The notes under the pieces: model-generated
Database searches by the model: none
What the model saw: only the letters and a program-made list of their open reading frames with translations
What the model was told of the DNA's origin: nothing
NCBI GenBank assembly: GCA_964016885.1
Contig: OZ024743.1
Coordinates: 183,892,001-183,956,000, forward strand
Length of the DNA: 64,000 nucleotides
Source of the DNA: Eledone cirrhosa
Taxonomy: Eukaryota
Direction: 5' to 3'
Part shown: piece by piece, positions 16,966 to 64,000 of the stretch
Numbering within the stretch: the first letter of the stretch is position 1
How the letters are laid out: each line of letters starts with the position of its first letter
Made by a program: the position numbers and the translations under genes

Positions 16966-17021
16966 ACCAGAACAACCTGCCACCCTCTACACACCATCAT
17001 AAACTGCGAGCAGGGTACAAA

Positions 17022-19787: not shown

Positions 19788-20639
19788 TGTACCCCTTCCA
19801 TACACATGCACACATGTGTGTATCATGACTCGTGCACTGTTCATTTTACTGATGTTTGTGCATTGCCCTATGTACTGTACATGCACTTTTTTGATGAGTT
19901 GTGGTGCACCTGGGCACTGTACACAATATTTCATTATTGTTATTGTTATTATATCATGACTCATACACTGTTTATTTTCCTGACATTTGTACATTATTCT
20001 ATGTACTATACATGCACCTTTGATGAGTTGTAGTGCACCTGAGCACTGTACACAATAATTTCATTATTATTATTATTTAAATAATTATAAGCACTTTAAA
20101 CAAACAGCTTTGTATCATGAAACCGAGGGCAGTTTCAGGCGGTTTTGTATCGAACAAGTTAAGTAAAAATTATTTATATAAATTTGTAATAACCGCACAA
20201 AAAGAAACTGCTTTGAACCTGCCCAAACATGAAACATATATAACGGAATACTCCTATGTTTTACCGGCGAAGATTCGAAACCGAATCTGAGGTTTCTCGC
20301 TTCTGGGACTAACCATTATTGGAAAGTTCCCACCTTTGTCTTGTCAAAGACAACGAGGATAAACGTACATTACGCTTGACCTGTGACCCCAGCTTCTTGG
20401 GAGACGATATCCACATGGCTGATCATAAAGCAACCTCATCCTTCTAACTTTAGCACTATTATAAATACAAGAAGTTAAGGAATCTAAGAAGTTAAGACTC
20501 GAAGCAGCAGTCAGCGAGTGATAATGATGTAGGCATCAGTAGACCTTTTACCCTTTCTCTCTCCTAGCCCTTACTGGTTGTCACCTTCTCGGCCACAGAC
20601 ACAGCCAGACAGCCAGCCATGCCTGCCTGGCAGATTGTC

Positions 20640-27713: not shown

Positions 27714-29033
27714 TATTGTTATACTTTGGGAGGGTCATGTTACCAATAAGAAACACACGCACCAGTTGCTTTCACTTCAATTTATTATAATAAATTTATA
27801 AATTTAGGAATTTATAAATCTATAAATTTCTGGTTGGTTGGTTGGTTCCACAACCAGATAGTTGTTTATATATTGTCAAAGTTCTTTCGTCACACATTCT
27901 GTGACCTCTTCAGTGACTGGGGATTCTTTTCTTTGTTTCTCTCCTTTGTTCTCTCCTACGCCATTTTGTTTCTGTGTGTGTGTTGTGTGCTCAGTCTGCG
28001 CATGCGCCAAATCCGGGTGTCTGTGTGTGTTTATATTCGTTTATTTATTTGTTTATTTACATGTTACCGGTTGGTTGTTTGTTCTATGTGTGTGTGTTTT
28101 CATTTTGTCCTTAATTGTAAGTTGTGATGTTGCTGTTCCACTCATGTTTTCTATTTAATTTTGGTTGTAATTCTTTTATGTTTATTGCCTCTGTGATTTG
28201 TCTAAACATTGCGTCTTTTCTGTGTGTAGATTCTATTTTTATTTCTATGTTCTCTAATTTACCCTTATGTTCTATTTTAGCATGTTGGTAGAGTACAGAT
28301 GATTCTTTACTATCTTGAAGGTCTCGCCAGTGTTCATTTATCTGTTCCCCTACACTACGAGCTGTCTCACCTATGTACACTATATTTTTGTCTCTACATT
28401 GTCCTTCAGTACATCTTATGCTATACACTACATTATGCCAAACCCATGACTTCCAAACATCTGATCCACCGAAACTCGGCTGTTTCGGACCATACCAAAA
28501 TCAACATACTGATTGCGGATTTGGTACGGGTCATGAGAAACGTGTCCCGCATGTGCAACCCCGAAGAACTAGAGAGACACATACAACACTTCATCCACCG
28601 TATGCAGTTCTCTGGTTACAATCAGAGAGATAAAATCAGAGTGTATAGAGGAGCCAGAACCAAATGGGAAAAAATGGTAAATAATGACACAAATGGGACC
28701 TGCCCCTTGTATAGGAGCAAATTTTGGAATAGAATAGAAAGAACTAGGAATAAGGCTAATAGAATAAACTCATGGTATGATAGCAATAAATACCAGAGTG
28801 TAATGTTCATCGATACAACCCCTAGAGGTGAATTAGCTTACAAATTTAGAAGGGCCCTAGATAAACATAAACTCAATATTAAGATAGTAGAAAGACCAGG
28901 TACCTCTGTAAAAACACTTATTAGCAATACATACCCTTTTCAAAGACCCCCCTGTATAGATAAGAAATGTATAACCTGTAAAATAAGCCCCCATATTAAC
29001 TGTAAAACTAGAAATGTAGTGTATAGTATAAGA
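27714..29033 (-). mobile_element. Penelope-like element (same family as 9248-10850) with 5' inversion
   Basis: 27714-28434 (-) corresponds to 10152-10850; 28430-29033 (+) corresponds to 9570-10172. Confidence 0.9.
27875..27917 (-). ncRNA. Hammerhead ribozyme matching 10655-10697
   Basis: Reverse complement of the same motif. Confidence 0.8.
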
Positions 29034-29074
29034 GAGTATTAAAGTTTGCTTGAAGCATTGTGGAATAATAAGAT

Positions 29075-33830: not shown

Positions 33831-35560
33831 CCTATGTGATATATACGCTTAAATCTGCTTCTTTCACCTTACCTGCCATTGATGGGGGTTTGGCTGGCTG
33901 TAGATCATACACGAATTATACACCTACAACTACTTCTTTCACCCTCTATCCATCAAGGACCAGGGTTTAGCTGGTGGTATGTGATCCTAAAGGAAGTAGA
34001 AATCCTCAAACTGTTTCTTTCGCCCTCTAACTTTGCATTGACAAGGGTTTAGCTGGCCATAGGAGGACATATGGGATGTAGACGCCCTAAAACTCCTTCT
34101 ATAACCCTCTAACTTCATTTTGATCAGGGATTAGGTGATACTATGGGAAGTATACACCTTAAAACACCTCCTTTTACCCTCTAATCTATCATTGAGAAGG
34201 GTTCAGCTGGCCGTTGGAGATCCTAAGTGAAGTATACGCCTAAAACTGCTTCTTTCACCCTCTAACCTGGCATTGACAAGGGTTCAGCTGACGTAGAAGA
34301 TCCTAAGGGTCGCATACGACCTAAAACCATTAATTTCGCACTCTGTCCTGGGTTTAGCTGGCCGTAGTTGATCGTATGGGAATTATACTGTCTAAAACTG
34401 CTTCTTTCACCATACTAACACAGTGACCAGGGTTTAGTGGGCCATATTAGATGCTATGGCATTTATACACCTAAAACTGCTTCTTTCGTCCTCTAACAAG
34501 TCATTTACCAGGGTTGAGCTGGCCATATTGGATCCTATGCAATATATACTCATAAATCTTCTTCTTTCGCTTTCTAACTTGGCATTGACAGGGATTTAGC
34601 TGGCCTTAGGAAATCCTACATGGTGTATACTATTTAAAGCCATGACTTTTGCACTCTGACCTGGGTTTAACTGGCCATAGGAGATCCTATGTGAAGTTTA
34701 CGGCCTAGAAATTCTTCTTTCACCGTACTAACTGCGCAGTGGCCAGGGTTTAGATGGCCGTAGGAGGTCCTATACGACTAGAACTGTTTATTTCGCGCTC
34801 TAACATGGTTTAGCTGGCCATATGAGATATTATGTGAAGTATACGGCCTGAAACGGCTTCTTACACACACCTTACATTTACAAGGGTTTAGAAGTCCTAC
34901 GGGAAGTATACACTTTACAATTATTTCCTTTACCCACCAACCTGGCATTGACAAGGGTTTACTTGTCCATAGGGGATCCGATGTGACGTATATGCCCTAA
35001 AGGCCTTAATTTCTAACCATCACCATGGCTTAACTTACTGTAGAATAATCTGTGTGAAGTATACTGCCTAAAACAGCTTCTTTTATCTTCTGACCAGGCA
35101 TTGACCAAGGTTTAGTGCATCTAACCTTACACCTAAAACTGCTTCTTTCACCCTCTATCAAGTCATGGGCCAGTGTTTAGCTGATGTTACGTGATCCGAA
35201 AGGAAGTATACGTCCTCACACTGCTTCTTTCACCTTCTATCCTAGCATTGACAAGGGTTTAACTGATGGTAGGAGATCCTATGGGGCGTATACGGCATAA
35301 AGCCATCACTTTCGCCATCTAACCAGGCATTTACCATATGAGATTCTATACGATGTATACGCTTAAATCTGCTTCTTTCACCTTCTGACCTGCTAGTGAT
35401 AGTGGTTTAGCTGGCCGTAGTTGACCCTACGACCTAAAGCCATTACTTTAGCACTCTGACCTGGGTTTAGTTGGCTATAGGAGATCCGATACGAAGTATA
35501 AGGCCTGAAACTGTTTTTTTCACCCTCTAACCTCACATTAACAAGAGTTTAGAAGATCCT
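33830..35560. repeat. ~81-bp degenerate satellite, left block
   Basis: Consensus AAAACTGCTTCTTTCACCCTCTAACCTGGCATTGACAAGGGTTTAGCTGGCCGTAGGAGATCCTATGGGAAGTATACGCCT. Confidence 0.85.
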
Positions 35561-36239: not shown

Positions 36240-36688
36240 GTAGTGAGAGTGGAGAAAGAGCTCACAGAATGGTTCACTGTATACAGAGGAATTCAAGAGG
36301 GAGGTTGGTGTAGCCATTGGCATTCAATCTTTACTCTGAGGAGGTGATGAGAAAATCAGTAAATATTCTCTCCTGGATCGAGGTTACTGTTGGTGGGAAA
36401 GAGATTAACAACCTGGGGTATGTTGACAACATAATACTCATAGCAAACTCACCAGCAAATCTACAAACAATGCTGCATAAAGTTTACAGAATTTCAAGAG
36501 AATATATTTTGGAGATCAACACCAAAATGACCAAAGTAATGGCAGCAATTAGACAGAAGGTAGAAATGAAAATTGGGTCCCAAGGTGCGACGCTGGAACA
36601 AGTCGAGAAGTTCAAATACCTTGGTTCAGTACTTGAGCAGACGGCAGAGAGAAGTTGGGAAATAAAGGTGAGATTAGCAACTACATAA
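36240..36688 (+). mobile_element. RTE-like LINE RT fragment
   Basis: GGKEINNLGYVDNIILIA..LEINTKMTKVM..LEQVEKFKYLGS (degenerate YADD region). Confidence 0.75.
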
Positions 36689-37033: not shown

Positions 37034-37469
37034 TTATACACGACACAACACATACATATATCCACACACACATTTGAAATCAAAGAGAAATTATTATTTC
37101 AAGGGAGACAATTCAGTTTAATTTACAATATTTCTCTCCCTTCTCTCTGTGCTGACTGCGAAGCAAACGTATTTAATAATTAGGATATACACACGGATAT
37201 ACGTTTGTATATATAATATATGTTTCTTTTATTTGCCACCAGGGCATCAAAAGTGGGACAAGTACAATGGGGGGAGTTTACAAAACAAGGCGTCCTCAAT
37301 AGGGAGGAGGCAATAACAATATATAAAAATAAAATAAAATATAACAAAAAATAAAATTATAACAAAATCCTCAATAGAGAGGAGGCGCCTTGGGGGGGGG
37401 GGGGGGGTCGCACGCACCCCCCCAAAAAAGTGTGCAACCCTTTTACTCGGGAGCACAGAGAAGGCGTGC

Positions 37470-38020
37470 TCCCTTGGTCTTTCATCTTCCTCACCTATAG
37501 TCTGATGTAGAGTGAAGGCTCATTCACACGGGCCATTCTCGCCACTTTCACCTATCTTTCATAAAAACGGCTGGGGTGCAGCACCTCTCTCTCCATCCTG
37601 ATCCTTCTTCCGAAATGATATCGGAAGAAACGGACCAGTTGTTGGCCAGAGAGAAAGGTGTCTGACCTCAGTCCTTTCAGACGCGTCCACCATACAACCT
37701 CTTTCGCCATGGCTATTACGCACAGAAACACCGCCTCTTCTTCGTTTTTGAAGAGGGGAGGCGGCTTGATCGTTACAATAGACTCGGTGGTCAACCGGAT
37801 CGGTCCCACCCTTGACAGCAGTTGTTCGACATAGCCCCACAGATCGGCAATGCCCGAGCAGTGTACCAATGCGTGTGCAACGGTTTCCTCGTCACACACG
37901 CATCTGGGACAGATCTTTTTCGAGGGGTCCCTACCCGGGCGCCCGTGTCTGTAGAGCCTTTCTCGAACGGGCAGAGCCCTTCTGTAGCATTGCCAGGCCA
38001 GGGACCTCTGGAAGTTATCC
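37470..38020 (-). pseudogene. Tx1 ORF2 C-terminal segment (zf-RVT-like)
   Basis: DNFQRSLAWQCYRRALPV..CPRCVCDEETVAHALVHC. Confidence 0.8.
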
Positions 38021-40127
38021 TGTAGCGGTTGTCTCCCTTGTTTTGATTGGGATCTAGACGGGAGGTGGAACCCTTTCTGCAACTTCCGGTCAGAGCCCTA
38101 TAAAACTAACAACGTTAAGCTTCCTTTCTCTCTCTTTGCCTTTTCGGCACCAGGTCGAAGAGCCTCTCATTTGGCTCTGCCATTAATTTGGCCAACAGGC
38201 GCCTGGCCTTAGCCAGGCGCCCTCTGCCAGCCGCGTTTGCCTGGCAATCAAAACGGTAACTACTAACTTTGTTTCATTCTAACATCTATCTTTGACATGT
38301 CAAGTATTCTATCTACCGTTAATTAAATATTATATACACAAACATTGTCTCGTTTTGTTACATTCATACAGCCAGTAATCTCGCTATATTGGTAACCCTG
38401 ACGTGATACGAACACCCAGCCGTTCATCGCTATAAGTGGTCACCCCCAAAAAAAGAAAAAAATAGCACATCTGGTTTTGTGAGTAACATTACGAATACAC
38501 AGCAAATTTAGCGACAAACTATGAAAATACTCAAGGACACGCACACACGCACATGTGGAATTCGCACAGACATACTTTTTCTCTCACGCATCAATTAACT
38601 GTCGCATTTCACCAATATATATATATATGTTTCTCGTTTCTTACAACGAACACTTTCAAAACAAAAAAAAAAAAAAAACATTTCACGATATATATATATG
38701 TTTCTCGTTTCTTACAACGAACTCTTTCAAAACACACACAAAAAAAAAAGAAATTTGATATTCTTTAAAAAACATTTCAACAGGAACATTTATTTTCGAT
38801 GAACCATTGCCTTTTGTTCTTCGTTTTCTTCATCGTTCAAGTTTTTTGTTTTTTTCCAAAGTTCACACCTATAATTATGCTGATTGAAGCCTTTCTTTTT
38901 CATCATTGTCACTTTCAAAATTGCACTATCATTTTCTCGCGCGTTAGAAATATTTTTTTTTTCAACCTTGTATTGGCACGTGTAGGCAGCATAAATTCTC
39001 AATTCACTGAGATGTCTCTACTCACAGACAGCCGCACGCCATTTATCACCAGGGATTCTTCAGCCTTAAGCTATATTCTTCTATTTGCCGGTTTATAAAT
39101 TTACAATGTAAATTTACCGTTGATAACCGCGCATTTATTAAGAATGCTTATTTCTCTGGTCGCTGGCCTCTTGACCCTTCCAGGTCAACGCATTCTCAAC
39201 ATCGACCATCAACTTCGGCTGCTATTTCTAGCACTTTGCGCAACTCATTTTTTTCTAAAAAAAAATTTTTTTACTGTGAATTTAAACACCGAATACGCTC
39301 ACTCAGCGAGACAACAGCAGCAGCAACAGCAATATAACAGCAACAGCAATACATCAACACAGCTTCACCAAAGCCAGAGAATTTATTTTTGCAGCACTCT
39401 TCCTGTGAGAAAATCCATTCGGAGGTTGGAAATTTCACGATATACCACAGAACAGAAACCACCTGCATTCATTCTCTGGAACACACTTTCTTTCCTGCTG
39501 TCATGTGATTGCACACCTGTGAGCTATATTTTGAACTTTGAGCTCTTCTATTACTTTTACTTTATTACATTGTATCTTTGGGTGATGGATAGATGGATGT
39601 CCAGTCGTTCTCTGGCCAAGAGCGGTTGGCTACCTTGATATCTATCATTGATTTTTCCAAACATTCTTTCGTAATTTTCATGCCTGTTACAACATTCTCG
39701 CCAACTTGCTACATATTTTCATTTCGATTTTTATACACTAAAATTCTGGCGGGAGGTTATGTAGCGGTTGTCTCCCTTGTTTTGATTGGGATCTAGACGG
39801 GAGGTGGAACCCTTTCTGCAACTTCCGGTCAGAGCCCTATAAAACTAACAACGTTAAGCTTCCTTTCTCTCTCTTTGCCTTTTCGGCACCAGGTCGAAGA
39901 GCCTCTCATTTGGCTCTGCCATTAATTTGGCCAACAGGCGCCTGGCCTTAGCCAGGCGCCCTCTGCCAGCCGCGTTTGCCTGGCAATCAAAACGGTAACT
40001 ACTAACTTTGTTTCATTCTAACATCTATCTTTGACATGTCAAGTATTCTATCTACCGTTAATTAAATATTATATACACAAACATTGTCTCGTTTTGTTAC
40101 ATTCATACAGCCAGTAATCTCGCTATA
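38021..40127 (+). mobile_element. Non-autonomous LTR retroelement, copy B
   Basis: 368-bp LTRs 38021-38388 and 39760-40127 with no differences seen; TSD ATCC; PBS-Trp 38390-38407; PPT ~39748-39756; internal region homologous to copy A. Confidence 0.92.
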
Positions 40128-41391
40128 ATCCATGGGTCCCGGGCTGAATGTCCTACCGAACAGGTTGGCCAGTTCGTCTTCCTCCATGCCTAGGGCTTCT
40201 CCGAGGGCGTCGTCGCACCTGCTAACCACTAGCCCTCTATAGAATGACGAGGTGGATTCTCCACTGACAGCCGGGTCCGCCTGCCAGAGAGCCGTGAGCG
40301 CCTGGGCACACTCTGTGTGCCAGGTGCCCAGTTTTCTCGGTCTTTGCTTGACCCAGGATTGCAGCTCGGTGAGTGAGACGAGTCTGGGAAAGGCTCGCCT
40401 CACAAACGGGGCCCACACCGGTATACCGGAGAGGAATACCTGAAGGTGCCGTAGCCTTAATGCGTGTTTACGTATCATTAGCCACGGCATCCCCAGCCTT
40501 CCTTTCGAAGGGTGTTGACAGCAGATGGATCTCCTCACCATAGGAGCCCGCTTCTTCCAAAGGAATTGGAAGAGTGTGCGCTCCATTTTGGCGAGCGTTT
40601 CCCTTGGGCAAGACACAACGGTCAGGCGGTAGTAGATGACGGACGCTATATAAGTGGTCGCCACCTCCGCCCGACCTTTCAGGGACAGTTTGCACTCGGC
40701 CCACTTCTGGGTCAGTGCAAACACCCTGTTCGTTACCTCACCCCAGTTCTTCTCCACCTGGAGGTCTGGTCCGAACCAGACCCCGAGCAACTTCACCGGG
40801 CCCTCCGTCCAGCGCCCGACGATGCCATCGGAGGGCATCAATCTGCCCCTCCACGTGCCGAGTTGCAGACCGATCGACTTGTCCCGGTTCAGCTTAGCCC
40901 CTGTAAACATTTCGTACTCCTCCAGTAAGGTGCCGATCGCCCCGATTTCCGAGGCCGTCAACACCATTACTGTTACGTTATCGGCGTAGGCTGACACCGC
41001 TTTCCGCAATCCCGGTTCCAACGGGATGCCCTGCAACAACTCCAACTTCCGCAGCAGTGGCTCTAGAGTCATTACATACAGAAGGGAGGAGAGAGGGCAC
41101 CCCTGTCGGATGGACCGCGCGATTTCGAACGGCTCCGAGAGGTAGCCGTTCACCTTGACCCTAGAGCAGATGCGGCTGCTGTGCATGGCATTGATCCAGC
41201 CCCTGAAAACGGGTCCGAAGCCTGCCGCCGCTAGCACCGCATCCAGGTAACCATGGTCGACCCTATCGAATGCCTTAGATTGATCCAAGTTGATCAGGGC
41301 CCCACCAAAGCCGGGTTCGTTCCCAACCCTCTATGATGTATCACATGAGGTGGAGGTTGTCGTGGATGGACCTGGACGCGATAGCACATGT
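40128..41391 (-). pseudogene. Tx1 ORF2 middle segment (RT), inactivated
   Basis: DQSKAFDRVDH, IRQGCPLS, YADN instead of YADD; stop and frameshift near 41340. Confidence 0.85.
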
Positions 41392-42712
41392 GTATAAAAA
41401 AAAAATAATGATGAAATTATTGTGTAAAGTGCTCAGGTGCACTACAACTCGTCAATATAGTACATAGAATAATACACAAATGTCAGGGAAGTACATGTGT
41501 GTATGTGTTAGCTGTTCTGTTGGCGGATCTCGGGAAGCATGGAGGCCTTAAAGGATGCAGTGTCTCGACAGCTAACAACTGATGCAGGTAGTTTGTTCCA
41601 TGCTTCAGCAACTCTGAGCGTGAAAAAATGTTTCAGAAAGTCATGGGAACTGTGCTGTTTTCTTACTTTGTGGGCATGTCCACGTGTGTTAGACACATGG
41701 AAATCGAAAAGGTACTCAGGGTTGTTGTTGGCAACATGGTTAACAATTTTGTGGGTGTTTACCAAGTCAGTTGCCAGGCGTCGGAGCTTCAATGAATCCA
41801 TGCCCAGGGAAGCAAGGCGTTCAGAGTATGGTAGATGCCTGATGGAGGGTATTCGCTTGGTTGCATGTCTCTGAACAGTTTCCAGGCGGTCAATGTCCTG
41901 AGCAAGATAGGGGTTCCAGACTGGTGATGCAAATTCTAAGTGTGGTTGCACCATAGCTGTATACAGCCTTAAATAGATATCTGGAGAGCGGCTGACAAAG
42001 GTCTTGCTGAGTGATGCTAAGACACCCTCGGCCCTCTTGACAATTTTAGAGACGTGCCTCGTCCAACGCAAATCGCTGCTGACCGTAATGCCCAGGTCAC
42101 GTTCACAGGAAGACTTCTTGATATTAGTGCTGTGGAGGGAGTATGTGGACGCTGGGTTTTTACTCCCAAAATGCATGGTGGTGCACTTGTCCACAGCTAG
42201 CTTGAGTTGCCAGTCTGAGATCCACTGTTGCATTGTGTCCAGGTCAGACTGCAAGCAAGATCTATAGTGTTCAGGATCTGTCCTTTTTATCTCAAGGTAC
42301 AGCTTGATGTCGTCTGCGTACTTTAGTACTGTGGCATTCCTTAAGTTGGCATCTATGTCATTAATATATGCCACAAACAAAAGGGGGCCAAGAACAGATC
42401 CCTGAGGTACACCAGATGACATCTCATATGGTGAGGAATGCTGTCCCAGAACCGTGACTACCTCTCTTCGACTGAGAATGAAGGACTTCAACCAGTTAAA
42501 AAGATCATCCTTCACACCCATTGCAGAGAGTTTTGCCATAAGCCTTTTGTGTGGCACAGAATTGAAGGCCTTCGCAAAGTCAAGGTAAACAACATCCACC
42601 CATGAGCCGCCATCAGTGATCCGGGTGATGTCCTCAAGAAACTCTATAAGTTGATCACAGCAGCTGGAGTTGGGGATAAATCCAAATTGCGAGGGCCGGA
42701 TAAGACTGTGAT
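41392..42712 (-). mobile_element. 5'-truncated CR1 (same family as 15.6-20 kb) inserted in Tx1 ORF2
   Basis: Protein nearly identical to ORF2 from HSLIRPSQFG onward; CR1 3' tail present; ACAT duplicated at both junctions. Confidence 0.92.
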
Positions 42713-44366
42713 ATGTCTGCGCATCTCCCACCAGGTTACCCACGACAAGCGCCAACCTCTTTGCTAGCACCTTGGCCAAAATCTGTAACTCTGTATTTAG
42801 CAGAGTTATGGGCCTGAAATTATTTATATCGTCCCCCTTGTTCTCGTCCTTCCTCACTAGCGTGACTACGCCCTTGGTCACAACACAGGGAATTCTCCCG
42901 TTCTGTTGCCAGTTGCAGTAGACCGCCTCAAGGAGATCGGGGAACAAGTCTGGCATAGCTAGATATAGTTCGTATGGAAGACCATCGAGACCCGGGGATT
43001 TGCGTTTGCCGCATTGGCTCAGCCCGTCCTCTATCTCAGCGGCTGAAATCGACTCCTCGCAGGACTTCGCCTCCCTGTCCGAGAGACGTGGCAGGCCGTC
43101 GAGGTATGGACCGAAGTCCACATCACCAACCGGTCCCCCGCCCCTTCCGAACAATCCGGCAAAGTGCTTTTGAAAAGCCTCGCACATCTGCTTAGGTTCA
43201 AGGATCACCCGTCCATCCTGGTCTCGCAAAGACCGGATAGTGGATCTGCTCCCTCTTTTGGCTTCTGTCACGTGGGCCCAGCTAACAGCTTTGGTCCCCT
43301 CGTTTCCCAGAGCACGTATTTTGCTTCGGACGATGCAGCCTTCGTGTTTCGCGTCGAAGAACTGGCCCAGGGCCGTTCTCGACGCTAGCACTCTGGCCAC
43401 GTCGCCGCTTCTAATTGCCTCTTCTACACTATCTACCAACTCCCTTTCCTTCCTATTTCTATTTGAGGCTAACTCCTTACTAAATTCTATAGAGACTACT
43501 CTAATCTCTCTTTTGAGAGATCCCCACCACCTGCTGTTGACGATGGCGCCCGTCAACCGCTCCTTAACTAAAGTGCTAATCCGGTCCCTGTAAGCCTTAC
43601 TTGCCGGTAAGGACAAGTTAAGCTTCCAGTAACCGGGTCCCTGTCTATGAGTTCTGTCAAGGTTGACCATGCAGGTCACTAACTTGTGGTCTGAATAGCC
43701 AACCATGCGCATTTTTGGACAACTTAAAAAGTCCTTATCCTTAATTCTAACTAAGAAGCTATCTAGGTACGACCTAGATGATCCGCTACGATTCGCCCAA
43801 GTCCAGGTTGGCGCAGTCGGAAAATCTAGTCGATATCTATCGGCCAGGTCAAATCGACCGATTAACCCTTTGAGGCTATTACACCCCTCTCTATCGGGAC
43901 AGGCCCCTACGTAGTCCCAGCGTGCATCTAGGATACCATTCCAGTCCCCCACTAATAGCAAGGAGCGGGACGTCCCTAGAAAAGTCTCCAGACGATGGAA
44001 GAAGTCCGGCCGCATTGACCCGAAAGGGCCGTAGGCGGCTACCAACCTAAACGCTCCGCCTTTACCACTGCCAAGGTCCAGAACCACTAGTCGACCCTCC
44101 GGTTCCAAATGTACCATCTGTGTTGTGAGACCCAGATGTTTTTGCAGCAGAACGACAACCCCACCCCTACCTCCGGGCTGACAGAGAGATGCGTGCATCT
44201 CAAAGTCATCAAAGGTGGGGGCCAGCTGTCGCACGTTGCTGATCCGGGCCTCGCAAATAACCATCACATCTATACGTTGTGACCTGAGGTCATTTAGAAG
44301 CATTGCTTGCTTCCAAGTTGAGCCCAGGCCACGCGCATTTAAACAGCCTACTCTTAGCATGGCCAT
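41508..44366 (-). CDS. Chimeric Tx1(EN + RT N-term)/CR1(RT core + C-term) open reading frame
   Basis: Uninterrupted ~950-960 codons: LNARG, GDWN, SDH, NFRPITLLN (Tx1) fused at ...VGDAQT|YHSLIRPSQFG to CR1 GVPQGS, YADD. Confidence 0.8.
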   Translation of the reverse strand: MAMLRVGCLNARGLGSTWKQAMLLNDLRSQRIDVMVICEARISNVRQLAPTFDDFEMHASLCQPGGRGGVVVLLQKHLGLTTQMVHLEPEGRLVVLDLGSGKGGAFRLVAAYGPFGSMRPDFFHRLETFLGTSRSLLLVGDWNGILDARWDYVGACPDREGCNSLKGLIGRFDLADRYRLDFPTAPTWTWANRSGSSRSYLDSFLVRIKDKDFLSCPKMRMVGYSDHKLVTCMVNLDRTHRQGPGYWKLNLSLPASKAYRDRISTLVKERLTGAIVNSRWWGSLKREIRVVSIEFSKELASNRNRKERELVDSVEEAIRSGDVARVLASRTALGQFFDAKHEGCIVRSKIRALGNEGTKAVSWAHVTEAKRGSRSTIRSLRDQDGRVILEPKQMCEAFQKHFAGLFGRGGGPVGDVDFGPYLDGLPRLSDREAKSCEESISAAEIEDGLSQCGKRKSPGLDGLPYELYLAMPDLFPDLLEAVYCNWQQNGRIPCVVTKGVVTLVRKDENKGDDINNFRPITLLNTELQILAKVLAKRLALVVGNLVGDAQTYHSLIRPSQFGFIPNSSCCDQLIEFLEDITRITDGGSWVDVVYLDFAKAFNSVPHKRLMAKLSAMGVKDDLFNWLKSFILSRREVVTVLGQHSSPYEMSSGVPQGSVLGPLLFVAYINDIDANLRNATVLKYADDIKLYLEIKRTDPEHYRSCLQSDLDTMQQWISDWQLKLAVDKCTTMHFGSKNPASTYSLHSTNIKKSSCERDLGITVSSDLRWTRHVSKIVKRAEGVLASLSKTFVSRSPDIYLRLYTAMVQPHLEFASPVWNPYLAQDIDRLETVQRHATKRIPSIRHLPYSERLASLGMDSLKLRRLATDLVNTHKIVNHVANNNPEYLFDFHVSNTRGHAHKVRKQHSSHDFLKHFFTLRVAEAWNKLPASVVSCRDTASFKASMLPEIRQQNS

Positions 44367-44417
44367 GTTGGTGGTGAAGAGAAAAGGCACTTACCTCTCT
44401 GCGTCCCGGGCATCGGG

Positions 44418-45430
44418 CTACACAATTTCCATTAGGGTGGGGGATGGGTTGTTGGGTGGGGTGGTGGTTTGTGGAGGTGTAGGGGCATCAGTGTGTTGTG
44501 TGGTTGGGATGTTTGGAGTTGTGTGGGTGTTTGGGGAGGGGGTGGGGTAGTTTTTTAGGAGGACGCGGTTAATGGGCCCGACGCAGGGGGGACCCACGTC
44601 CTCTTTAAAGTTGTTTTTTAAAGTTTTATAGGTGTCCTGTGGGGCCTTAATCATTTTGAGGTGGGGGAAATCCCCTGCCTGGGTGATGTTAGGCCCTTGG
44701 GTTTTTATTAGATTGTTGTTGTACACAATGTTTAACAGTTTTTTGTTTCTTGTGTTTATGTATGTGTATGCATGTTTTTGTTTTTGTGTGGAGTTTTTTG
44801 TTTGCTGTTGTTGTGAGCTCTTTTGTGTTGGTGTCAGTGTTATGTTTTGGGGAGGGGTTGTTTTCATTTGTGTGTCTGAGGTGTTTTATTTTTTTTCATT
44901 TGATTGTGTGGAAGTGCTCCTCCTCGTCTGACGACGAACTAGGGTCATCTTCCGCGTTGGAGGGGAGGGGTATATTTTCGGGTTGTGTTTGCGGTGCGGG
45001 TGTTTTGGAAATTGTTTTTGTTTTTTGAGTGGGGGGGATGGGTTGGACATTGTTTTGTTTTGGTTTGCGCTGTGGTGGTTGTTTTTGTAGTGGTAGTTGT
45101 GGTGATTGTGTTGGTTGTGCAGTTGTTGGTGGTGTAGGCAGGATTGGGGTTTTCTTATTAAGTTGGGGACAGACAGCCCTCAGGTGACCTCTGGTTCCGC
45201 AGAGGTAACACGAGGGCCATCTACCCTCAACGGTAATGTTGATGAAAGTTTGATCATCCAGTATGACGCGTTCAGGGATCTGGGCGATCCTTTCGGGCCT
45301 CATTTGAACTACAAGTTCGAGGCTCGTTCCACTGAACGCGTCACCTGATGCCTTTCCCATGGACACCAGCGTGTCATCATCCAGGTCCAGGAAACCTGTC
45401 AAAACCCACCATATGTCCATAATCGGCAGA
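44418..45430 (-). pseudogene. Tx1 ORF1 C-terminal part with CCHC zinc knuckle, frameshifted
   Basis: CYLCGTRGHLRAVC followed by a P/T/Q/K-rich tail. Confidence 0.75.
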
Positions 45431-45569
45431 ATATATATATATAATATATATATATATATACACATATCAGTGTGTGTGTATATATATTTATATGTATATA
45501 TATACATAATCTTTAAAGACATTTGCTTAACATTCAAGGGAGAGAAACAAACAGAATCTCCTATTGGAT

Positions 45570-47630
45570 GTATTTGACCTAAAGCCATTATTTTGCACTC
45601 TGGCCTGGGTTTAACTGGCCGTATAAGATCGTATGTGAAGTGTACGGACTAAAAATGCTTCTTTCACACTCTATCCTCGCATTGACAATGGTTTAAGTGA
45701 TCCTATGGGAAGTATACACTTTAAAACGCCTTCTTTTACCCTCTAATCTGTCATTGGCAAGGGTTGAGCTGACGGTAGGAGATCCTATAACACAAATATG
45801 ACCTAAAGCCATTACTTTCGCACTCGGACATGGGTTTAGCTGGCCATATGAGATCTTATAGGAAGTATACATCGTCAAACTGCTTCTTTCACCTTCTATC
45901 CTAGCATTGACAATGGTTTAGTTGATGGTAGGAGATCCTATGGGATGTATACGCCCTGAAGCCATTACTTTCACGTCTGGCCATACATTTGTCAGGGTTT
46001 AGCTCCTATGTGATGTTTACGCTTAAATCTGCTTCTTTCACCTTCTGACCTGCCATTGATGCGTGTTTGGCTGGCCGTAGAAGAACATACACGAATTATA
46101 CACCTACAACTGCTTCTTTCACCCTCTATCCATCAAGGACCAGGTTTTAACTGGCGGTATGCGATCCTAAAGGAAGTAGACGTCTTCAAACTGCTTCTTT
46201 TGCCCTCTAATCTTGCATTGACAAGGGTTTAGCTGGCCATAGGAAGACACATGGGACGCAGACGCCCTAAAACTCCTTCTATGACCCTCTAACTTCACTT
46301 TGATCAGAGGTTAGATGATGCTATGGGAAGTATACACCTTAAAACACCTTTTTTTACCCACTAATCTATCATTGACAAAGGTTCAGCTGGACGTTGGAGA
46401 TCCTAAGTGAAGTATACGCCTAAAACTACTTCTTTCCCCCTCTAACCAGGCCGTAGGAAGTCCTATACAACTACAACTACTTATTTCGCGCTCTAAAAAT
46501 GCATTTGCCATGGTTTAGCTGGCCATATGAGATATTATGGGAAGTATACAACCTGAAATGGCTTCTTACACACACAACCTTACATTTACAAGTCTAGGTT
46601 TAGAAGTCCTATGGGAAGTATACGCTTTAAAATTGTTTCTTTTACCCACCAACCTGGCATCGACAAGGGTTTACCTGGCACTTGGAGATCCGATGTGACG
46701 TATATGCACTAAAGCCCTTACTTTCTAACCCTCACCATGGCTTAACTGACTGTAGAATAATCTGTGTGAAGTATACTGCCTAAAACAACTTCTTTCATCC
46801 TCTAACCAGGCATTGACCAGGGTTTAGTGCACCGTAGGAGATCCTATAGGCAGTATACTGCCTAAACTGCTTCTTTCACCTTTTAACCTGGCATTGACAA
46901 GGGTTTAGCTGGTTGAAGGTGATTCTACTGGACATATACACCAAAAAGATCTTATAGGAAGTATATTCTTTCAAACTGCTTCTTTTACCCTCTAATCAGG
47001 CATTTAGCAAGGTTTAAATAGCCAAATAATATCCTAAAATATATGTCGTCAAACTGCTTCTTTCACCCTTTAACCTGGCATTGACCAGCATTTAGCTGGC
47101 CATATGAGATCTCATAGGAAGTATAGGCCTAAAACTGCGCCTTTCACCATTTAAACTGGCATTGACAAAGGTTTAGCAGGCCGTAGGAGATCCTATGGGA
47201 GGTATACGGTCTAAAACTGCTTTTAGAAAGTATACACCTTAAAGCCATAACTTTCACTATCTAACCAGGTATTTACCAGGGTTTAGATAGCCATCTGAGA
47301 TCCTATGCAATTTTAACTCTGATTCTTTTACCCTCTAACTTGGCAGAGGTTTAGCTTGCCGTACGAAATCCTACAGGACTTATACACCTAAAACTGCTTC
47401 TTTCACCCTCTATTCAGTCATGGACGAGGGTTTAGCTGGTGGTGTGTGATCCTAAAGGAAGTATACCATCCTCAAACTGCTTCTTTCACCTTCTATCCTA
47501 GCATTGTCAAGGCATTTAGCAGGGTTTGGCTGGCCATATGAGATCTCATGGGAAGTATAGGCCTAAAACTGCGTCTTTCACCATCTAACCTGGCATTGAC
47601 AAAGGTTTAGCAGGCTGTAGGAGATTGGAA
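45570..47630. repeat. ~81-bp degenerate satellite, right block
   Basis: Same consensus as 33830-35560. Confidence 0.85.
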
Positions 47631-50789: not shown

Positions 50790-52860
50790 TTTAGTTGAGA
50801 ATAGAAAAAAATTGTAGAAATGGAGTAGTAACAAAAATGATACAAAATCAAAGGGGTCTAACACATCTGCTATAAGTAGTTAGAATTGGCCGAATACGTT
50901 TTACTATCTTAAAATTACAGGAGTGGGGAAACTGATGCTACAGAGGCCCTATGGGCTGCATCGGGGTAGGTAAAAGGGGAAAAGCAGACGAGGAAGAAAA
51001 TAGGGGGTGGAAGGAAGTGATAGGATGAGACAGGGGGAAGAAGAAGACATAGAGGAAAGGAAAAGAGATACATCTACCTCTGTAAGCTGGGGTTTCCCCT
51101 AACTTATTCGGAAAGTGTGTGTGTGTGTGGGGGGGGGGGTATCAGCTCTTGTCTACCCACCCGAGTCATTATTGGGTTTGAGGTCGAGGTAAGTCCTACG
51201 CAATCTGTGTTTGTATGCGGTTACCAGTTCGTCTTTCTTGTTTAGGAGTTGGTCCTTCGAAAACATCTAACCATCCTAGAAACATCACCAATAACCTGGT
51301 TAAAAACATCTCCCTCCGCATATCTCGTTTGTCCGCTAATGAGCAGATATTCGATGAACATGCGCCTCATTACAAGCAAGCCCTCAAGCGGAGTGGCTTC
51401 CGGGAGGAAATATCCTTTTATCCAGCTTCCCTTAGCGGAACCAGCAGGCGACACCGCCGCTCACGCAACGTAACGTGGTTCAATCCTCCCCATAATGCCG
51501 AGGTGGCAACACCTATCAGGAAAATCTTCTTTAGGCCCCTCGAAAAACACTTCCCACTACAACACCGTTACCACAACATAATCAACAAAAACACCATCAA
51601 ACTCTCCTACAGCACCACACCTAACTTCGCACAAAACATCGTCTCCTCAAACAACAAAAAACTCAACCCCTATGGAAGAAACAACCTAGACATCAGTGGA
51701 GAGCCGACCAGGAGGTGTAACTGCCCTGATAGATCTACGTGCTCCCTCAACAACAAATGCCGAGAACGTAACGTGTTTTACTAGTGCAACGTGAGGACGG
51801 ACACCTCCAACAAAGCTTATATAGGATTAACCGCTTGTGACTTCAAGACCCGGCTCTACCAACAGCGACATACTTTCCGAAACCCGGTCCGGCGACATGC
51901 CACTACACTTTCGGGCCACATCTGGGACCTCCAAGATAATAATATAACCTACAATCTCACTTGGAGCTTACTGTCCAGAGCTAACTCTTACACGGGAGGA
52001 CGCCGTCCGTGTAACTTATGCTCGGAGGAAACATTACAAATGCTGTTTTCGAAGGACCAACTCCTAAACAAGAAAGACGAACTGGTAACCGCATGCAAAC
52101 ACAGATTGCGTAGGACTTACCTCGCCCTCAAACCCCAAAACGACTCGGGTGGGTAGACAAGGGTTGATACCCCCCAATTGCCGAATAAGTTAGGGGAAAC
52201 CCCAGCTTACATAGGTAGATGTATCTCTTTTCTTTTCCTCTATGTCTTCTTCCCTCTGTCTCATCCTATCACTTCCTTCCACCCCCTATTTTCTTCTCGT
52301 CTGCTTTTCCCCTTTCGCCTACTCCGATGCAGCCCATCAGGCCTCTGTAGCATCAGTTCCCCCACCCCTGTAATTTTAAGATAGAATTGGCCGAATACGT
52401 TTTACTAACTACTTGTATCATTTTTGTTACTACTCCATTTCTACAATTTTTTTCTATTCTCAACTTATTAACCTGTAATTGTAAGATAATTTTCTTTTTA
52501 TTTGCCACCAGGGCATCAAAAAGTGGGACAAGTACAATGGGGAGAGTTTACATAACAAGGCGTCCTCAATAAGGAGGAGGCAATAACAAAATATAAAAAT
52601 AAAATAAAAATTGTAAGATAGCATTGTGATTATTTTTATTCATTTCTCACTATCTAATTTTATATATTTTTTTATTTATTTCTATTACCTTTTATTGTCT
52701 CCTACTCTCATTCGATTTACCTATTTTATAACCTCCCTCCTCCATTTCCTACACTATCCTTAGAATCTGCTGTATACATCACTTTCAATGCTTGAACGGC
52801 TCCACTCACTCCCCTATTGTTCTACAGGCAAGTTCAGCCACCCCTACCTCCCACCAAATG
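50790..52860 (+). mobile_element. Third Penelope-like family copy, with inverted 5' segment
   Basis: SNHP..RNVTWFNPP..CNC and KAYIGLT..CNLCSEE (51266-52156); 50790-51265 is the inverse of 52045-52465. Confidence 0.85.
52489..52608 (-). mobile_element. 120-bp 3'-end insertion of the Tx1 family
   Basis: Matches 37223-37340; 12-bp TSD AATTGTAAGATA at 52477-52488 and 52609-52620. Confidence 0.85.
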
Positions 52861-56419: not shown

Positions 56420-59400
56420 ATGGAATACTGGGATAATGGAATATAGTTAAACATTGTTGGGACCAGAATAACAGGATGGTAGGATAAAGTCAAACAATAT
56501 TGAGACTGGGATGGTGGGATATAGTCACATATTGTTGGTACTGGAATACAGGGATGGTGGGATATAGTCACATATTGTTGGGACTAGAATACTGGGATGG
56601 TGGGATATAGTCACATATTGTTGGTACTGGAATACTGGGATGGTGGGATATAGTCACATATTGTTGGTACTGGAATACAGGGATGGTGGGATATAGTCAA
56701 ATATTGTTGGTAGTGGAATACTGGGATGGTGGGATATAGTCACATATTGTTGGTACTGGAATACTGGGATGGTGGGATATAGTCACATATGGTTGGTAGT
56801 GGAATACTAGGATGGTGGGATATAGTCACATATTGTTGGTACTGGAATACAGGGATGGTGGGATATAGTCACATATTGTTGGTACTGGAATACTGGGATG
56901 GTGGGATATAGTCACATATTGTTGGTACTGGAATACAGGGATGGTGGGATATAGTCAAATATTGTTGGTACTGGAATACAGGGATGGTGGGATATAGTCA
57001 CATATTGTTGGTAGTGGAATACTGGGATGGTGGGATATAGTCACATATTGTTGGTAGTGGAATACTGGGATGGTGGGATATAGTCACATATTGTTGGTAC
57101 TGGAATACTGGGATGGTGGGATATAGTCACATATTGTTGGTAGTGGAATACTAGGATGGTGGGATATAGTCACATATTGTTGGTACTGGAATACAGGGAT
57201 GGTGGGATATAGTCACATATTGTTGGTACTGGAATACTGGGATGGTGGGATATAGTCACATATTGTTGGTAGTGGAATACTGGGATGGTGGGATATAGTC
57301 ACATATTGTTGGTACTGGAATACAGGGATGGTGGGATATAGTCACATATTGTTGGTACTGGAATACTGGGATGGTGGGATATAGTCACATATTGTTGGTA
57401 CTGGAATACTGGGATGGTGGGATATAGTCACAAATTGTTGGTACTGGAATACTGGGATGGTGGGATATAGTCACAAATTGTTGGTACTGGTATACTGGGA
57501 TGGTGGGATATAGTCACATATTGTTGGTACTGGAATACTGGGATGGTGGGATATAGTCACATATTGTTGGTAGTGGAATACTGGGATGGTGGGATATAGT
57601 CACATATTGTTGGTAGTGGAATACTGGGATGGTGGGATATAGTCACATATTGTTGGTAGTGGAATACTGGGATGGTGGGATATAGTCACATATTGTTGGT
57701 ACTGGAATACTGGGATGGTGGGATATAGTCACATATTGTTGGTAGTGGAATACTGGGATGGTGGGATATAGTCACATATTGTTGGTACTGGAATACTAGG
57801 ATGGTGGGATATAGTCACATATTGTTGGTACTGGATTATTGGGATGGTGGGATATAGTCACATATTGTTGGTAGTGGAATACTGGGATGGTGGGATATAG
57901 TCACATATTGTTGGTAGTGGAATACTGGGATGGTGGGATATAGTCACATATTGTTGGTACTGGAATACTGGGATGGTGCGATATAGTCACATATTGTTGG
58001 TACTGGAATACTGGGATGGTGGGATATAGTCACATATTGTTGGTACTGGATTATTGGGATGGTGGGATATAGTCACATATTGTTGGTGGTGGGATGGTGG
58101 GATATAGTCTCATATTGTTGGTACTGAAATACTGGGATGGTGGGATATAGTCACATATTGTTGGTAGTGGAATACTGGGATGGTGGGATATAGTCACATA
58201 TTGTTGGTACTGGAGTACTGGGATGGTGGGATATAGTCACATATTGTTGGTAGTGGAATACTGGGATGGTGGGATATAGTCACATATTGTTGGTACTGGA
58301 ATACTGGGATGGTGGGATATAGTCACATATTGTTGGTAGTGGAATACTGGGATGGTGGGATATAGTCACATATTGTTGGTACTGGAATGCTGGGATGGTG
58401 GGATATAGTCACACATTGTTGGTAGTGGAATACTGGGATGGTGGGATATAGTCACATATTGTTGGTACTGGAATACTGGGATGGTGGGATATAGTCACAT
58501 TTTGTTGGTAGTGGAATACTGGGATGGTGGGATATAGTCACATATTGTTGGTACTGGGATGGTGGGATGGTGGGATATAGTCACATATTGTTGGTACTGG
58601 AATACTGGGATGGTGGGATATAGTCACATATTGTTGGTACTGGAATAGTGAGATGGTGGGATATAGTCACACATTGTTGGTAGTGGAATACTGGGATGGT
58701 GGGATATAGTCACATATTGTTGGTACTGGAATAGTGAGATGGTGGGATATAGTCACACATTGTTGGTACTGGAGTACTGGGATGGTGGGATATAGTCACA
58801 TATTGTTGGTAGTGGAATACTGGGATGGTGGGATATAGTCACATATTGTTGGTAGTGGAATACTGGGATGGTGGGATATAGTCACATATTGTTAGTAGTG
58901 GAAGACTGGGATGGTGGGATATAGTCACATATTGTTGGTAGTGGAATACTGGGATGGTGGGATATAGTCACATATTGTTGGTACTGGAATACTGGGATGG
59001 TGGGATATAGTCACATATTGTTGGTAGTGGAATACTGGGATGGTGGGATATAGTCACATATTGTTGGTACTGGAATATTGGGATGGTGGGATATAGTCAC
59101 ATATTGTTGGTACTGGAATACTGGGATGGTGGGATATAGTCACATATTGTTGGTACTGGAATACAGGGATGGTGGGATATAGTCACATATTGTTGGTACT
59201 GGAATACTGGGATGGTGGGATATAGTCACATATTGTTGGTACTGGAATACTGGGATGGTGGGATGTAGTCACATATTGTTGGTACTGGAATACAGGGATG
59301 GTTGGATATAGTCACATATTGTTGGTAGTGGAATACTGGGATGGTGGGATATAGTCACATATTGTTGGTACTGGATTACTGGGATGGTGGGATATAGTCA

Positions 59401-62400
59401 CATATTGTTGGTACTGGAATACAGGGATGGTGGGATATAGTCACATATTGTTGGTACTGGAATACTGGGATGGTGGGATGTAGTCACATATTGTTGGTAC
59501 TGGATTACTGGGATGGTGGGATATAGTCACATATTGTTGGTACTGGAATACTGGGATGGTGGGATATAGTCACATATTGTTGGTACTGGAATACTGGGAT
59601 GGTGCGATATAGTCACATATTGTTGGTAGTGGAATACTGGGATGGTGGGATATAGTCACATATTGTTGGTACTGGAATACTGGGATGGTGGGATATAGTC
59701 ACATATTGTTGGTAGTGGAATACTGGGATGGTGGGATATAGTCACATATTGTTGGTACTGGAATACTGGGATGGTGGGATATAGTCACATATTGTTGGTA
59801 CTGGAATACAGGGATGGTTGGATATAGTCACATATTGTTGGTACTGGAATACTGGGATGGTGGGATATAGTCACATATTGTTGGTACTGGAATACTGGGA
59901 TGGTGGGATGTAGTCACATATTGTTGGTACTGGAATACTGGGATGGTGCGATATAGTCACATATTGTTGGTACTGGAATACTGGGATGGTGGGATATAGT
60001 CACATATTGTTGGTACTGGAATACTGGGATGGTGGGATGTAGTCACATATTGTTGGTACGGGAATACTGGGATGGTGGGATATAGTCACATATTGTTGGT
60101 AGTGGAATACTGGGATAGTTGGATATAGTCACATATTGTTGGTAGTGTAATACTGGGATGGTGGGATATAGTCACATATTGTTGGTTCTGGAATACTGGG
60201 ATGGTGGGATATAGTCACATATTGTTGGTACTGTGATGGTGGGATGGTGGGATATAGTCACATATTGTTAGGACTGGAATACTGGGATGGTGGGATATAG
60301 TCACATATTTTTTTGTACTGGAATACTGGGATGGTGGGATATAATCACATATTGTTGGTGCTGGAATACTGGGATGGTGGGATATAGTCACATATTGTTG
60401 GTAGTGGAATACTGGGATGGTGGGATATAGTCACATATTGTTGGTACTGGGATGGTGGGATATAGTCACATATTGTTGGTACTGGAATACTGGGATGGTG
60501 GAATATAGTCACATATTGTTGGTAGTGGAATGCTGGGATGGTGGTATATAGTCACATTTTGTTGGTACTGGATTATTGGGATGGTGGGATATAGTCACAT
60601 ATTGTTGGTAGTGGAATACTGGGATGGTGGGATATAGTCACATATTGTTGGTACTGGAATACTGGGATGGTGGGATATAGTCACATATTGTTGGTACTGG
60701 AATACTGGGATAGTTGGATATAGTCACATATTGTTGGTAGTGTAATACTGGGATGGTGGGATATAGTCACATATTGTTGGTTCTGGAATACTGGGATGGT
60801 GGGATATAGTCACATATTGTTGGTACTGTGATGGTGGGATGGTGGGATATAGTCACATATTGTTAGGACTGGAATACTGGGATGGTGGGATATAGTCACA
60901 TATTTTTTTGTACTGGAATACTGGGATGGTGGGATATAATCACATATTGTTGGTGCTGGAATACTGGGATGGTGGGATATAGTCACATATTGTTGGTAGT
61001 GGAATACTGGGATGGTGGGATATAGTCACATATTGTTGGTACTGGGATGGTGGGATATAGTCACATATTGTTGGTACTGGAATACTGGGATGGTGGAATA
61101 TAGTCACATATTGTTGGTAGTGGAATGCTGGGATGGTGGTATATAGTCACATTTTGTTGGTACTGGATTATTGGGATGGTGGGATATAGTCACATATTGT
61201 TGGTAGTGGAATACTGGGATGGTGGGATATAGTCACATATTGTTGGTACTGGAATACTGGGATGGTGGGATATAGTCACATATTGTTGGTACTGGAATAC
61301 TGGGATGGTGGGATATGGTCACATATTGTTGGTACTGGAATACTGGGATGGTGGGATATAGTCACATATTGTTGGTACTGGAATACTGGGATGGTGGGAT
61401 ATAGTCACATATTGTTGGTACTGGAATACAGGGATGGTGGGATATAGTCACATATTGTTGGTACTGCGATACTGGGATGGTGGGATATAGTCACATATTG
61501 TTGGTAGTGGAATACTGGGATGGTGGGATATAGTCACATATTGTTGGTAGTGGAATACTGGGATGGTGGGATATAGTCACATATTGTTGGTAGTGGAATA
61601 CTGGGATGGTGGGATATAGTCACATATTGTTTGTACTGGAATACTGGGATGGTGGGATATAGTCACATATTGTTGGTAGTGGAATACTGGGATGGTGGGA
61701 TATAGTCACATATTGTTGGTACTGGAATACTGGGATGGTGGGATATAGTCACATATTGTTGGTAGTGGAATACTGGGATGGTGGGATATAGTCACATATT
61801 GTTTGTACTGGAATACTGGGATGGTGGGATATAGTCACATATTGTTGGTAGTGGAATACTGGGATGGTGGGATATAGTCACATATTGTTTGTACTGGAAT
61901 ACTGGGATGGTGGGATATAGTCACATATTGTTGGTACTGGAGTACTGGGATGGTGGGATATAGTCACATATTGTTGGTACTGGAGTACTGGGATGGTGGG
62001 ATATAGTCACATATTATTGGTACTGGAATACTGGGATGGTGGGATATAATCACATATTGTTGGTACTGGAATATTAGGATGGTGGGATATAGTCACATAT
62101 TGTTGGTAGTGGAATACTGGGATGGTGGGATATAGTCACATATTGTTGGTACTGGAATACTGGGATGGTGGGATATAATCACATATTGTTGGTACTGGAA
62201 TATTAGGATGGTGGGATATAGTCACATATTGTTGGTACTGGAATACTGGGATGGTGGGATATAGTCACATATTGTTGGTACTGGAATACTGGGATAGTTG
62301 GATATAGTCACATATTGTTGGTACTGGATTATTGGGATGGTGGGATATAGTCACATATTGTTGGTACTGGATTATTGGGATGGTGGGATATAGTCACATA

Positions 62401-64000
62401 TTGTTGGTACTGGAATACTGGGATGGTGGGATATAGTCACATATTGTTTGTAGTGGAATACTGGGATGGTGGGATATAGTCACATATTGTTGGTAGTGGA
62501 ATACTGGGATGGTGGGATATAGTCACATATTGTTGGTACTGGAATACTGGGATGGTGGGATATAGTCACATATTGTTGGTAGTGGAATACTGGGATGGTG
62601 GGATATAGTCACATATTGTTGGTAGTGGAATACTGGGATGGTGGGATATAGTCACATATTGTTGGTACTGGAATACTGGGATGGTGGGATATAGTCACAT
62701 ATTGTTGGTACTGGAATACTGGGATGGTGCGATATAGTCACATATTGTTGGTACTGGAATACTGGGATGGTGGGATATAGTCACATATTGTTGGTAGTGG
62801 AATACTGGGATGGTGGGATATAGTCACATATTGTTGGTACTGGAATACTGAGATGGTGGGATATAGTCACATATTGTTGGTAGTGGAATACTAGGATGGT
62901 GGGATATAGTCACATATTGTTGGTAGTGGAATACTGGGATGGTGGGATATAGTCACATATTGTTGGTACTGGATTACTGGGATGGTGGGATATAGTCACA
63001 TATTGTTGGTACTGGATTACTGGGATGGTGGGATATAGTCACATATTGTTGGTAGTGGAATACTGGGATGGTGGGATATAGTCACATATTGTTGGTAGTG
63101 GAATACTGGGATGGTGGGATATAGTCACATATTGTTGGTACTGGAATACTGGGATGGTGGGATATAGTCACATATTGTTGGTAGTGGAATACTGGGATGG
63201 TGGGATATAGTCACATATTGTTGGTACTGGATTATTGGGATGGTGGGATATAGTCACATATTGTTGGTACTGGAATACAGGGATGGTGGGATATAGTCAC
63301 ATATTGTTGGTACTGGAATACTGAGATGGTGGGATATAGTCACACATTGTTGGTAGTGGAATACTGGGATGGTGGGATATAGTCACATATTGTTGGTAGT
63401 GGAATACTGGGATGGTGGGATATAGTCACATATTGTTGGTACTGGATTATTGGGATGGTGGGATATAGTCACATATTGTTGGTACTGGAATACTGGGATG
63501 GTGGGATATAGTCACATATTGTTGGTAGTGGAATACTGGGATGGTGGGATATAGTCACATATTGTTGGTACTGGAATACTGGGATGGTAGGATATAGTCA
63601 CATATTGTTGGTAGTGGAATACTGGGATGGTGGGATATAGTCACATATTGTTGGTACTGGAATACTGGGATGGTGGGATATAGTCACATATTGTTGGTAC
63701 TGGAATACTGGGATGGTGCGATATAGTCACATATTGTTGGTACTGGAATACTGGGATGGTGGGATATAGTCACATATTGTTGGTAGTGGAATACTGGGAT
63801 GGTGGGATATAGTCACATATTGTTGGTACTGGATTACTGGGATGGTGGGATATAGTCACATATTGTTGGTGGTGGGATGGTGGGATATAGTCACATATTG
63901 TTGGTACTGGATTACTGGGATGGTGGGATATAGTCACATATTGTTGGTGGTGGGATGGTGGGATATAGTCACATATTGTTGGTACTGGAATACTGGGATG
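56420..64000. repeat. 43-bp satellite array (~175 copies, continues beyond the window)
   Basis: Unit GGGATGGTGGGATATAGTCACATATTGTTGGTA(C/G)TGGAATACT; degenerate at its left edge. Confidence 0.98.

Follow-up and report, generated by a model that had tools for sequence, protein, structure and literature searches.

A CR1-group LINE nested in frame within a Tx1-type ORF2 of Eledone cirrhosa: a probable chance fusion in decay

We describe a chimeric open reading frame (ORF) of 952 codons (41508..44366, minus strand) in which the APE endonuclease, linker and RT start of a Tx1-type LINE are continued by the RT core, thumb and C-terminus of a CR1-group LINE. It lies in a window of 64,000 nt of the Eledone cirrhosa assembly GCA_964016885.1 (OZ024743.1:183,892,001-183,956,000, forward strand; genome of 3.0 Gb), the window being the whole stretch of DNA that was analysed, to which all positions refer unless another contig is named. 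The best explanation, to which we give a probability of roughly 0.87, is that a 5′-truncated CR1 landed in the ORF2 of a Tx1-type copy that lacks its front part, most likely through ordinary target-primed reverse transcription (TPRT) with frame and position matching by chance, and that the resulting hybrid is decaying without selection. The initial annotation of this locus had hesitated between a chance snapshot of a domain swap and a chimera under some constraint; the single-copy junctions and neutral-like divergence reported here favour the former and speak against the latter.

Structure of the hybrid ORF and its junctions

The stop-free frame extends over 41508..44390 on the minus strand, and an ATG at 44366, surrounded by a purine-rich context, opens the 952 codons. 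When a 951-aa query was searched for domains, Exo_endo_phos was found at residues 22-206 and RVT_1 at residues 511-744. The endonuclease motifs LNARG, ICEAR, AAYGP, GDWN, YLD and SDH are all present, as is YADD at residue 683, and no catalytic motif has been lost. The hybrid is open and has the APE and RT catalytic motifs of an autonomous LINE, in agreement with the single ORF of about 950 aa, with Tx1 APE, RT motifs, YADD and a CR1 tail, that had been read from the sequence.

Codons 553-952, together with a 3′ UTR and a degenerate (ATT)n/T tail, belong to a CR1-group LINE of 1.32 kb (41392..42711, minus strand) that lies co-oriented within the Tx1 ORF2, as the initial annotation had described for a 1.3-kb truncated CR1. 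The insert is about 99% identical to a CR1-group family whose copies run further 5′ (...GGAGCTC|TCACAGTC) and terminate 3′ in (ATT)n; it is therefore 5′-truncated. A target-site duplication, ACAT, flanks it, with the upstream copy at 42713..42716 and the downstream copy at 41388..41391 (both on the minus strand, read as ATGT on the plus strand at 42713 and 41388). A single ACAT occurs in the sister Tx1 copies, where the empty site reads GCG CAG ACA TGT GCT ATC (A-Q-T-C-A-I); both the repeated ACAT and this empty site had been correctly recognised. Target-site duplication, intact 3′ end with a tail and truncated 5′ end, the hallmarks of a LINE insertion by TPRT, are all observed.

A single base at 42712 (minus strand), compared with the sisters of the host and of the insert, belongs to neither parent and sets the reading frame, so that the in-frame join is owed to one extra base. 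The seam falls inside the RT, a region over which the parents are 24% identical. There, Tx1 GNLVGDAQ aligns opposite CR1 HSLIRPSQ and 8 homologous residues are duplicated, as expected from the proposed join of 'LVGDAQT' to 'HSLIRPSQFG' with about 8 residues repeated; in all, the hybrid RT has 10 surplus residues when compared either with the uninterrupted host or with human L1 ORF2p.

The Tx1-type host copy

The Tx1-derived codons 1-551 (42713..44366, minus strand) lie about 1% from the family majority and carry R203S and R365H at conserved arginines. The former adjoins the endonuclease aspartate, at a position where arginine is kept in 42/45, and the arginine at the latter is kept in 40/43. 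Upstream, a remnant of ORF1 (44394..45432, minus strand), consisting of its 3′ half with a CCHC knuckle, is frameshifted, bears in-frame stops and is cut at 45432 against a (TA)n run; a tblastn search with a natural ORF1 recovered it in two frames plus stops. Four full-length Tx1 sisters reach about 1.0 kb further 5′ than this position, and the missing part of about 1 kb (5′ UTR and half of ORF1) was not found anywhere in the 64-kb window. The host copy thus has neither the 5′ UTR nor the intact ORF1 of an autonomous LINE. The statement that ORF1 and the promoter are damaged holds for ORF1 and has to be corrected for the rest, since the copy stops at 45432 and that kilobase is absent.

Downstream of the insert, the displaced Tx1 RT and thumb (40128..41391, minus strand) have a CGA>TGA stop at 41343, a 2-bp deletion near 41328 and a GAC>AAC change at 40979 that turns the catalytic motif into YADN, each lesion being found in at most 1/46 sisters; the decay of this half by stop, frameshift and YADN is confirmed. 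A second nested insertion follows, a 2.1-kb LTR element (38021..40127, plus strand, antisense to the surrounding Tx1), so that the copy has been interrupted twice. This element has identical 368-bp LTRs, a 4-bp duplication (ATCC), a primer-binding-like site after the first LTR and a purine tract before the second, holds no ORF of at least 200 aa, and is very recent. The Tx1 copy then resumes with its C-terminal zf-RVT domain, 3′ UTR and 3′ end (37218..38020, minus strand), the last lying against a TA-rich run; 3′ ends of this family abut simple repeats in all six copies looked at.

Other repeats were noted in the window. A near full-length CR1 at 15467-19950 (plus strand), from a sister subfamily 85-88% identical to the young family, keeps both of its frames open, ORF1 over 444 aa and ORF2 over 957 aa. 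A degenerate 81-bp satellite flanks the Tx1 region (34137-34605 and about 45600-47500), and a 43-bp satellite (56505-64000; 175 copies, 94% match) runs off the window end. A short RT fragment (RVT_1) was seen at 36314-36688 (plus strand), and three ORFs on the same strand (9336-10415, 28281-29042 and 51182-51784) resemble what we take to be Penelope-type RT/GIY-YIG tails.

Phylogenetic placement of the two halves

Separate RT trees, which the initial annotation had called for, place the halves in different deep clades. Residues 431-551 cluster with the uninterrupted host family of this genome and with zf-RVT-bearing proteins, in a tree from which 4 of 27 reference rows, including the genome's own CR1, were dropped for weak alignment. 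Residues 553-770 (28/28 rows kept) group with the genome's full-length insert family and the bird protein P0006 with a support of 100/100, apart from the zf-RVT group. The matches listed by protein searches were CR1-type for the back part and zf-RVT-type for the front part; P0029 was, among these matches, the only protein that headed one list and was present in the other.

Judged from sequence relationships, the L1-group label of the front and the CR1-group label of the back are well supported. The name Tx1 proper would fit the CCHC ORF1, the zf-RVT domain and the simple-repeat flanks, on which it rests rather than on a named Tx1 reference; none of the 120 protein matches listed carried that name. 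The CR1 label of the back half rests on motifs and on P0006, bird LINEs being, we assume, CR1. As used here, with comparison sequences that bear no such names, CR1-group would cover either CR1 or L2 within the group.

Age, open frames and selection

The fused Tx1 half differs from the column majorities by 0.99% and the displaced half by 1.27%, and the insert departs from its own sub-lineage at 5 positions out of 1307 (0.38%), R807Q, R834H and R911L being among the changes. Since about 1% is set against 0.4%, about two thirds of the host changes would pre-date the fusion, which is likely to be later than most host-half changes, few as the mutations behind this estimate are.

The sister baseline was drawn from the first 100 empty-site matches on contig C1; 99 were used, every one an exact match, and 36 of these belong to the host's subfamily. 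Among these position-ordered sisters, codons 1-551 are open in 7/26 whole same-subfamily copies and the displaced segment in 10/32. When sisters were instead selected by similarity, the stretch of codons 1-551 was open in 1/18 same-subfamily copies, four of which form one cluster; the scoring itself gave 0/17, to which L082, placed in another bin owing to a 49-bp gap, was added. Of 29 CR1 sisters selected likewise, 26 have this part open. Open frames are ordinary at this age, and the openness of the hybrid is not beyond chance; its frame would still be open because both parts are young.

The fused Tx1 half carries 8 synonymous and 8 non-synonymous changes, compared with a synonymous share of 0.29 in the sisters (P 0.06). 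Two of its synonymous sites are common within the subfamily, and without subfamily-shared sites the synonymous changes become 7/15 or 6/14 (P 0.11 and 0.19, respectively). In the displaced half they amount to 3/17, and the Fisher comparison of the two halves gave P 0.07 with the subfamily-shared sites and 0.13-0.23 without them. We regard the excess in the fused half as a weak hint that may point to constraint. A comparison of disabling mutations in the fused and displaced parts had been proposed as a check: the contrast is not significant, and 4 of the 23 sisters with both halves whole have an open front and a broken back without any CR1.

In the CR1 half we counted 3 non-synonymous changes and 1 synonymous change. 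The arginine replaced by R807Q is kept in 115/116 homologues, that replaced by R834H in 106/114 and that replaced by R911L in 80/108, the new residue occurring in 0, 1 and 0 homologues, respectively; R911L is common to one of the nine closest CR1 sisters. Two of these three sites are CpG transitions, and only 27% of columns are conserved as strongly at the 70% level. Changes in the CR1 half should post-date the fusion, so that three non-synonymous changes at conserved arginines fit neutral decay, and the substitution pattern appears to be that of neutral decay. Purifying selection on the ORF, by which a domesticated gene would be recognised, was not found in these comparisons.

These data bear directly on an alternative in which a host or read-through promoter would drive the fused ORF and weak purifying selection would maintain it, either in an early domestication or as a trans-acting enzyme for CR1-tailed RNAs. 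The synonymous excess of the fused Tx1 half with the lower share in the displaced half, the intact catalytic motifs, the single open copy among the 18 picked by similarity and the ATG in its purine-rich context are what such a gene might show. However, the excess is not significant and sits where most of the changes probably preceded the fusion; the part with post-fusion changes has three non-synonymous ones, each at a conserved arginine, and the 5′ UTR is absent. We therefore consider a domesticated or trans-acting hybrid improbable.

Chance of the landing and integrity of the assembly

For this family pair, a near-homologous landing (within at most 10 codons), in frame and co-oriented, is expected 0.006-0.018 times per genome, given some 2,800 host copies in which the ORF2 start is retained (79/99 loci) and a density of roughly one CR1 5′ end for each base of this region; the expectation is lower still after requiring open frames. 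Uniform insertion would place this CR1 in the Tx1 family about 78 times in all, and none was found in 99 Tx1 loci of 5 kb, where about 2 would be expected. When all young LINE families are considered, the expectation is 0.09-1, the totals being assumed. The landing would thus be rare for one pair, though not in a survey that spans many families and genomes. Joining guided by homology was also considered and rejected, as the 11/40 matches upstream of the seam are at background.

Assemblies tend to err in repeats of very high copy number, as both families are, and the nesting could in principle be a misjoin between the two. Against this, the Tx1 halves are contiguous around the 4-bp duplication and show similar copy-specific divergence (the 0.99% and 1.27% given above), and the insert ends in a normal tail and is joined through a single extra base. 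A misjoin would presumably need two precise errors, and we hold it to be very improbable. Contigs of four sequencing runs were compared with 191 bp around the junction, and contigs of two runs and two RAD read sets with 58 bp; no sequence spanned the junction, which does not show its absence, as contigs in these repeats are filtered and only 30-80 bp long and the RAD reads gave no match. No RNA run was among those listed as containing the stretch, which speaks neither for nor against expression.

Copy number and search for daughter copies

Both junction 20-mers are single-copy in the 3.0 Gb when up to one mismatch is allowed, whereas their components abound, with counts of 3,622 for the empty Tx1 site, 12,953 for the CR1 tail, 1,085 for the CR1 break-point 20-mer and 476 for a probe that lies 600 bp further 5′. 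The genome search for other copies of the junction that the initial annotation had recommended therefore returned none. A single-copy junction combined with near-neutral divergence, which it had named as the mark of a coincidence, is largely what we observed.

A 56-mer with two alleles of the hybrid copy matched 27 other places. None of the 25 that were inspected is a daughter copy: all belong to an older subfamily, at 80-95% identity, and wherever a copy is long enough it runs on into native CR1. Dispersed copies sharing the structure, by which an autonomous family is defined, were not found in these searches. As a snapshot of how a domain swap originates, the locus is so far a dead end, with no detectable progeny.

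Predicted structure

Modelling of the hybrid with a 77-row alignment, also suggested beforehand, gave a confident prediction (pLDDT 89.4, pTM 0.73; a single-sequence prediction with pLDDT 34.9 was disregarded). Over residues 541-560, the stretch in which the surplus residues are looped out, confidence drops to 59 and 78; the best structural matches are human L1 ORF2p structures. The predicted fold is plausible, which says nothing of a protein being made or working. This confident model, the 1/18 open copies, the P of 0.06 for synonymous changes, the rare landing, the lack of this CR1 in the 99 Tx1 loci and the intact motifs argue against the neutral reading.

The boldest reading would be that of a natural, still-foldable inter-superfamily ORF2, transcribed by read-through and mobilising CR1-tailed RNA to Tx1-type microsatellite targets, which would reveal a way for ORF2 itself to be shuffled within the RT; we attach very little probability to it. 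Still more doubtful is a hybrid that is or was an active source and founded a new family by Tx1 endonuclease targeting with CR1 RT and 3′-tail recognition: in its favour are the full APE-RT arrangement, in which RT and 3′ tail are cognate, the confident model with its looped-out surplus residues, and human-mouse L1 domain swaps, most of which function (PMC3091869), but the junction is single-copy with no daughter among the 25 of 27 candidates inspected, the 5′ UTR and an intact ORF1 are absent, and the seam lies within the RT of parents only 24% identical there.

Proposed origin of the hybrid

Under the preferred reading, that of a chance nested insertion in neutral decay, the Tx1-type copy would first have entered a (TA)n run. 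The 5′ UTR is gone along with half of ORF1, a loss that probably took place at insertion and would have removed the promoter. The copy would then have drifted, acquiring about two thirds of its changes before the CR1 landed. The CR1 cDNA stops 1.32 kb from its tail, and its junctions show one extra base and a duplication of 4 bp, an anatomy that TPRT would produce. The LTR element, whose LTRs are identical, would have landed later in the displaced half. The fused frame would be open only because its parts are young, and conserved residues are already being lost; we predict that the hybrid yields neither a functional protein nor daughter copies.

A recombinant Tx1 subfamily

A separate observation concerns a Tx1 subfamily that is very young and has amplified; it comprises L134, L119, L150 and most of L117-L152 (for example G000:C2:25025417-25033416). 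L134 matches L119 and L150 at 99.2-99.8% identity, and most copies are open over codons 1-551. This subfamily is recombinant: its ORF1 and endonuclease come from the window's subfamily and its linker, RT and C-terminus from another (L093, L206). When 3 recombinant and 4 + 4 parental copies were scored, 54/54 diagnostic sites up to codon 237 followed one parent and 45/45 from codon 243 the other. Elsewhere, four Tx1 copies with similar flanking matches (L114, L115, L116 and L118) lie within 1 Mb (G000:C1:211.9-212.9 Mb) and likely represent a segmental duplication rather than separate insertions. To return to the recombinant subfamily: Here close relatives exchanged parts exactly at the endonuclease border, and the product did amplify; the contrast with the hybrid suggests which swaps succeed. 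This recombinant subfamily may be a better lead than the hybrid.

Significance and comparison with known systems

The truncation-and-nesting route proposed for ORF1 can also give an in-frame seam within the RT, between LINE superfamilies, and in genomes rich in young LINEs a hybrid ORF of 950 codons needs no selection. The locus offers a ready construct to ask if an RT split between L1-type and CR1-type can work. As a likely dead accident the hybrid is of little weight; if active, it would challenge the view of ORF2 as evolving in a tree-like manner. In the literature searched, outside subscription papers and supplements, no natural intra-RT fusion of Tx1 and CR1 was listed.

The front of the hybrid resembles the Tx1 clade, which includes the microsatellite-targeting Kibi and Koshi (PMC4494074), in having an APE-RT ORF2 with zf-RVT, a CCHC ORF1, simple-repeat 3′ ends and L1 ORF2p as its closest solved relative; unlike those elements, only codons 1-551 remain in the ORF. 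The back resembles CR1-group LINEs by its RT grouping (100/100) and (ATT)n tail, and differs from them in that the CR1 endonuclease, linker and RT start are absent.

Like engineered ORF2 chimeras, the hybrid combines the endonuclease of one element with the RT of another. Takahashi and Fujiwara, in 2002, reportedly obtained a functional SART1/TRAS1 endonuclease swap, a domain-border exchange between related elements, and the L1 swaps mentioned above joined human and mouse ORF2. In contrast with such chimeras, the seam described here is within the RT, its parents are 24% identical and any activity of the hybrid is putative.

A close parallel is the mechanism that Metcalfe and Casane (2014; PMC4120745) proposed for ORF1 shuffling, in which a hybrid would arise when a 5′-truncated LINE inserts into another element between ORF1 and ORF2; they describe ORF2 as evolving in a tree-like manner. 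Our locus agrees with this route in that a co-oriented, 5′-truncated LINE lies in an element of another type and a hybrid results. It differs from their proposal in that the seam is inside the RT of ORF2 and between two superfamilies, and in that the host has neither a 5′ end nor an ORF1 to lend.
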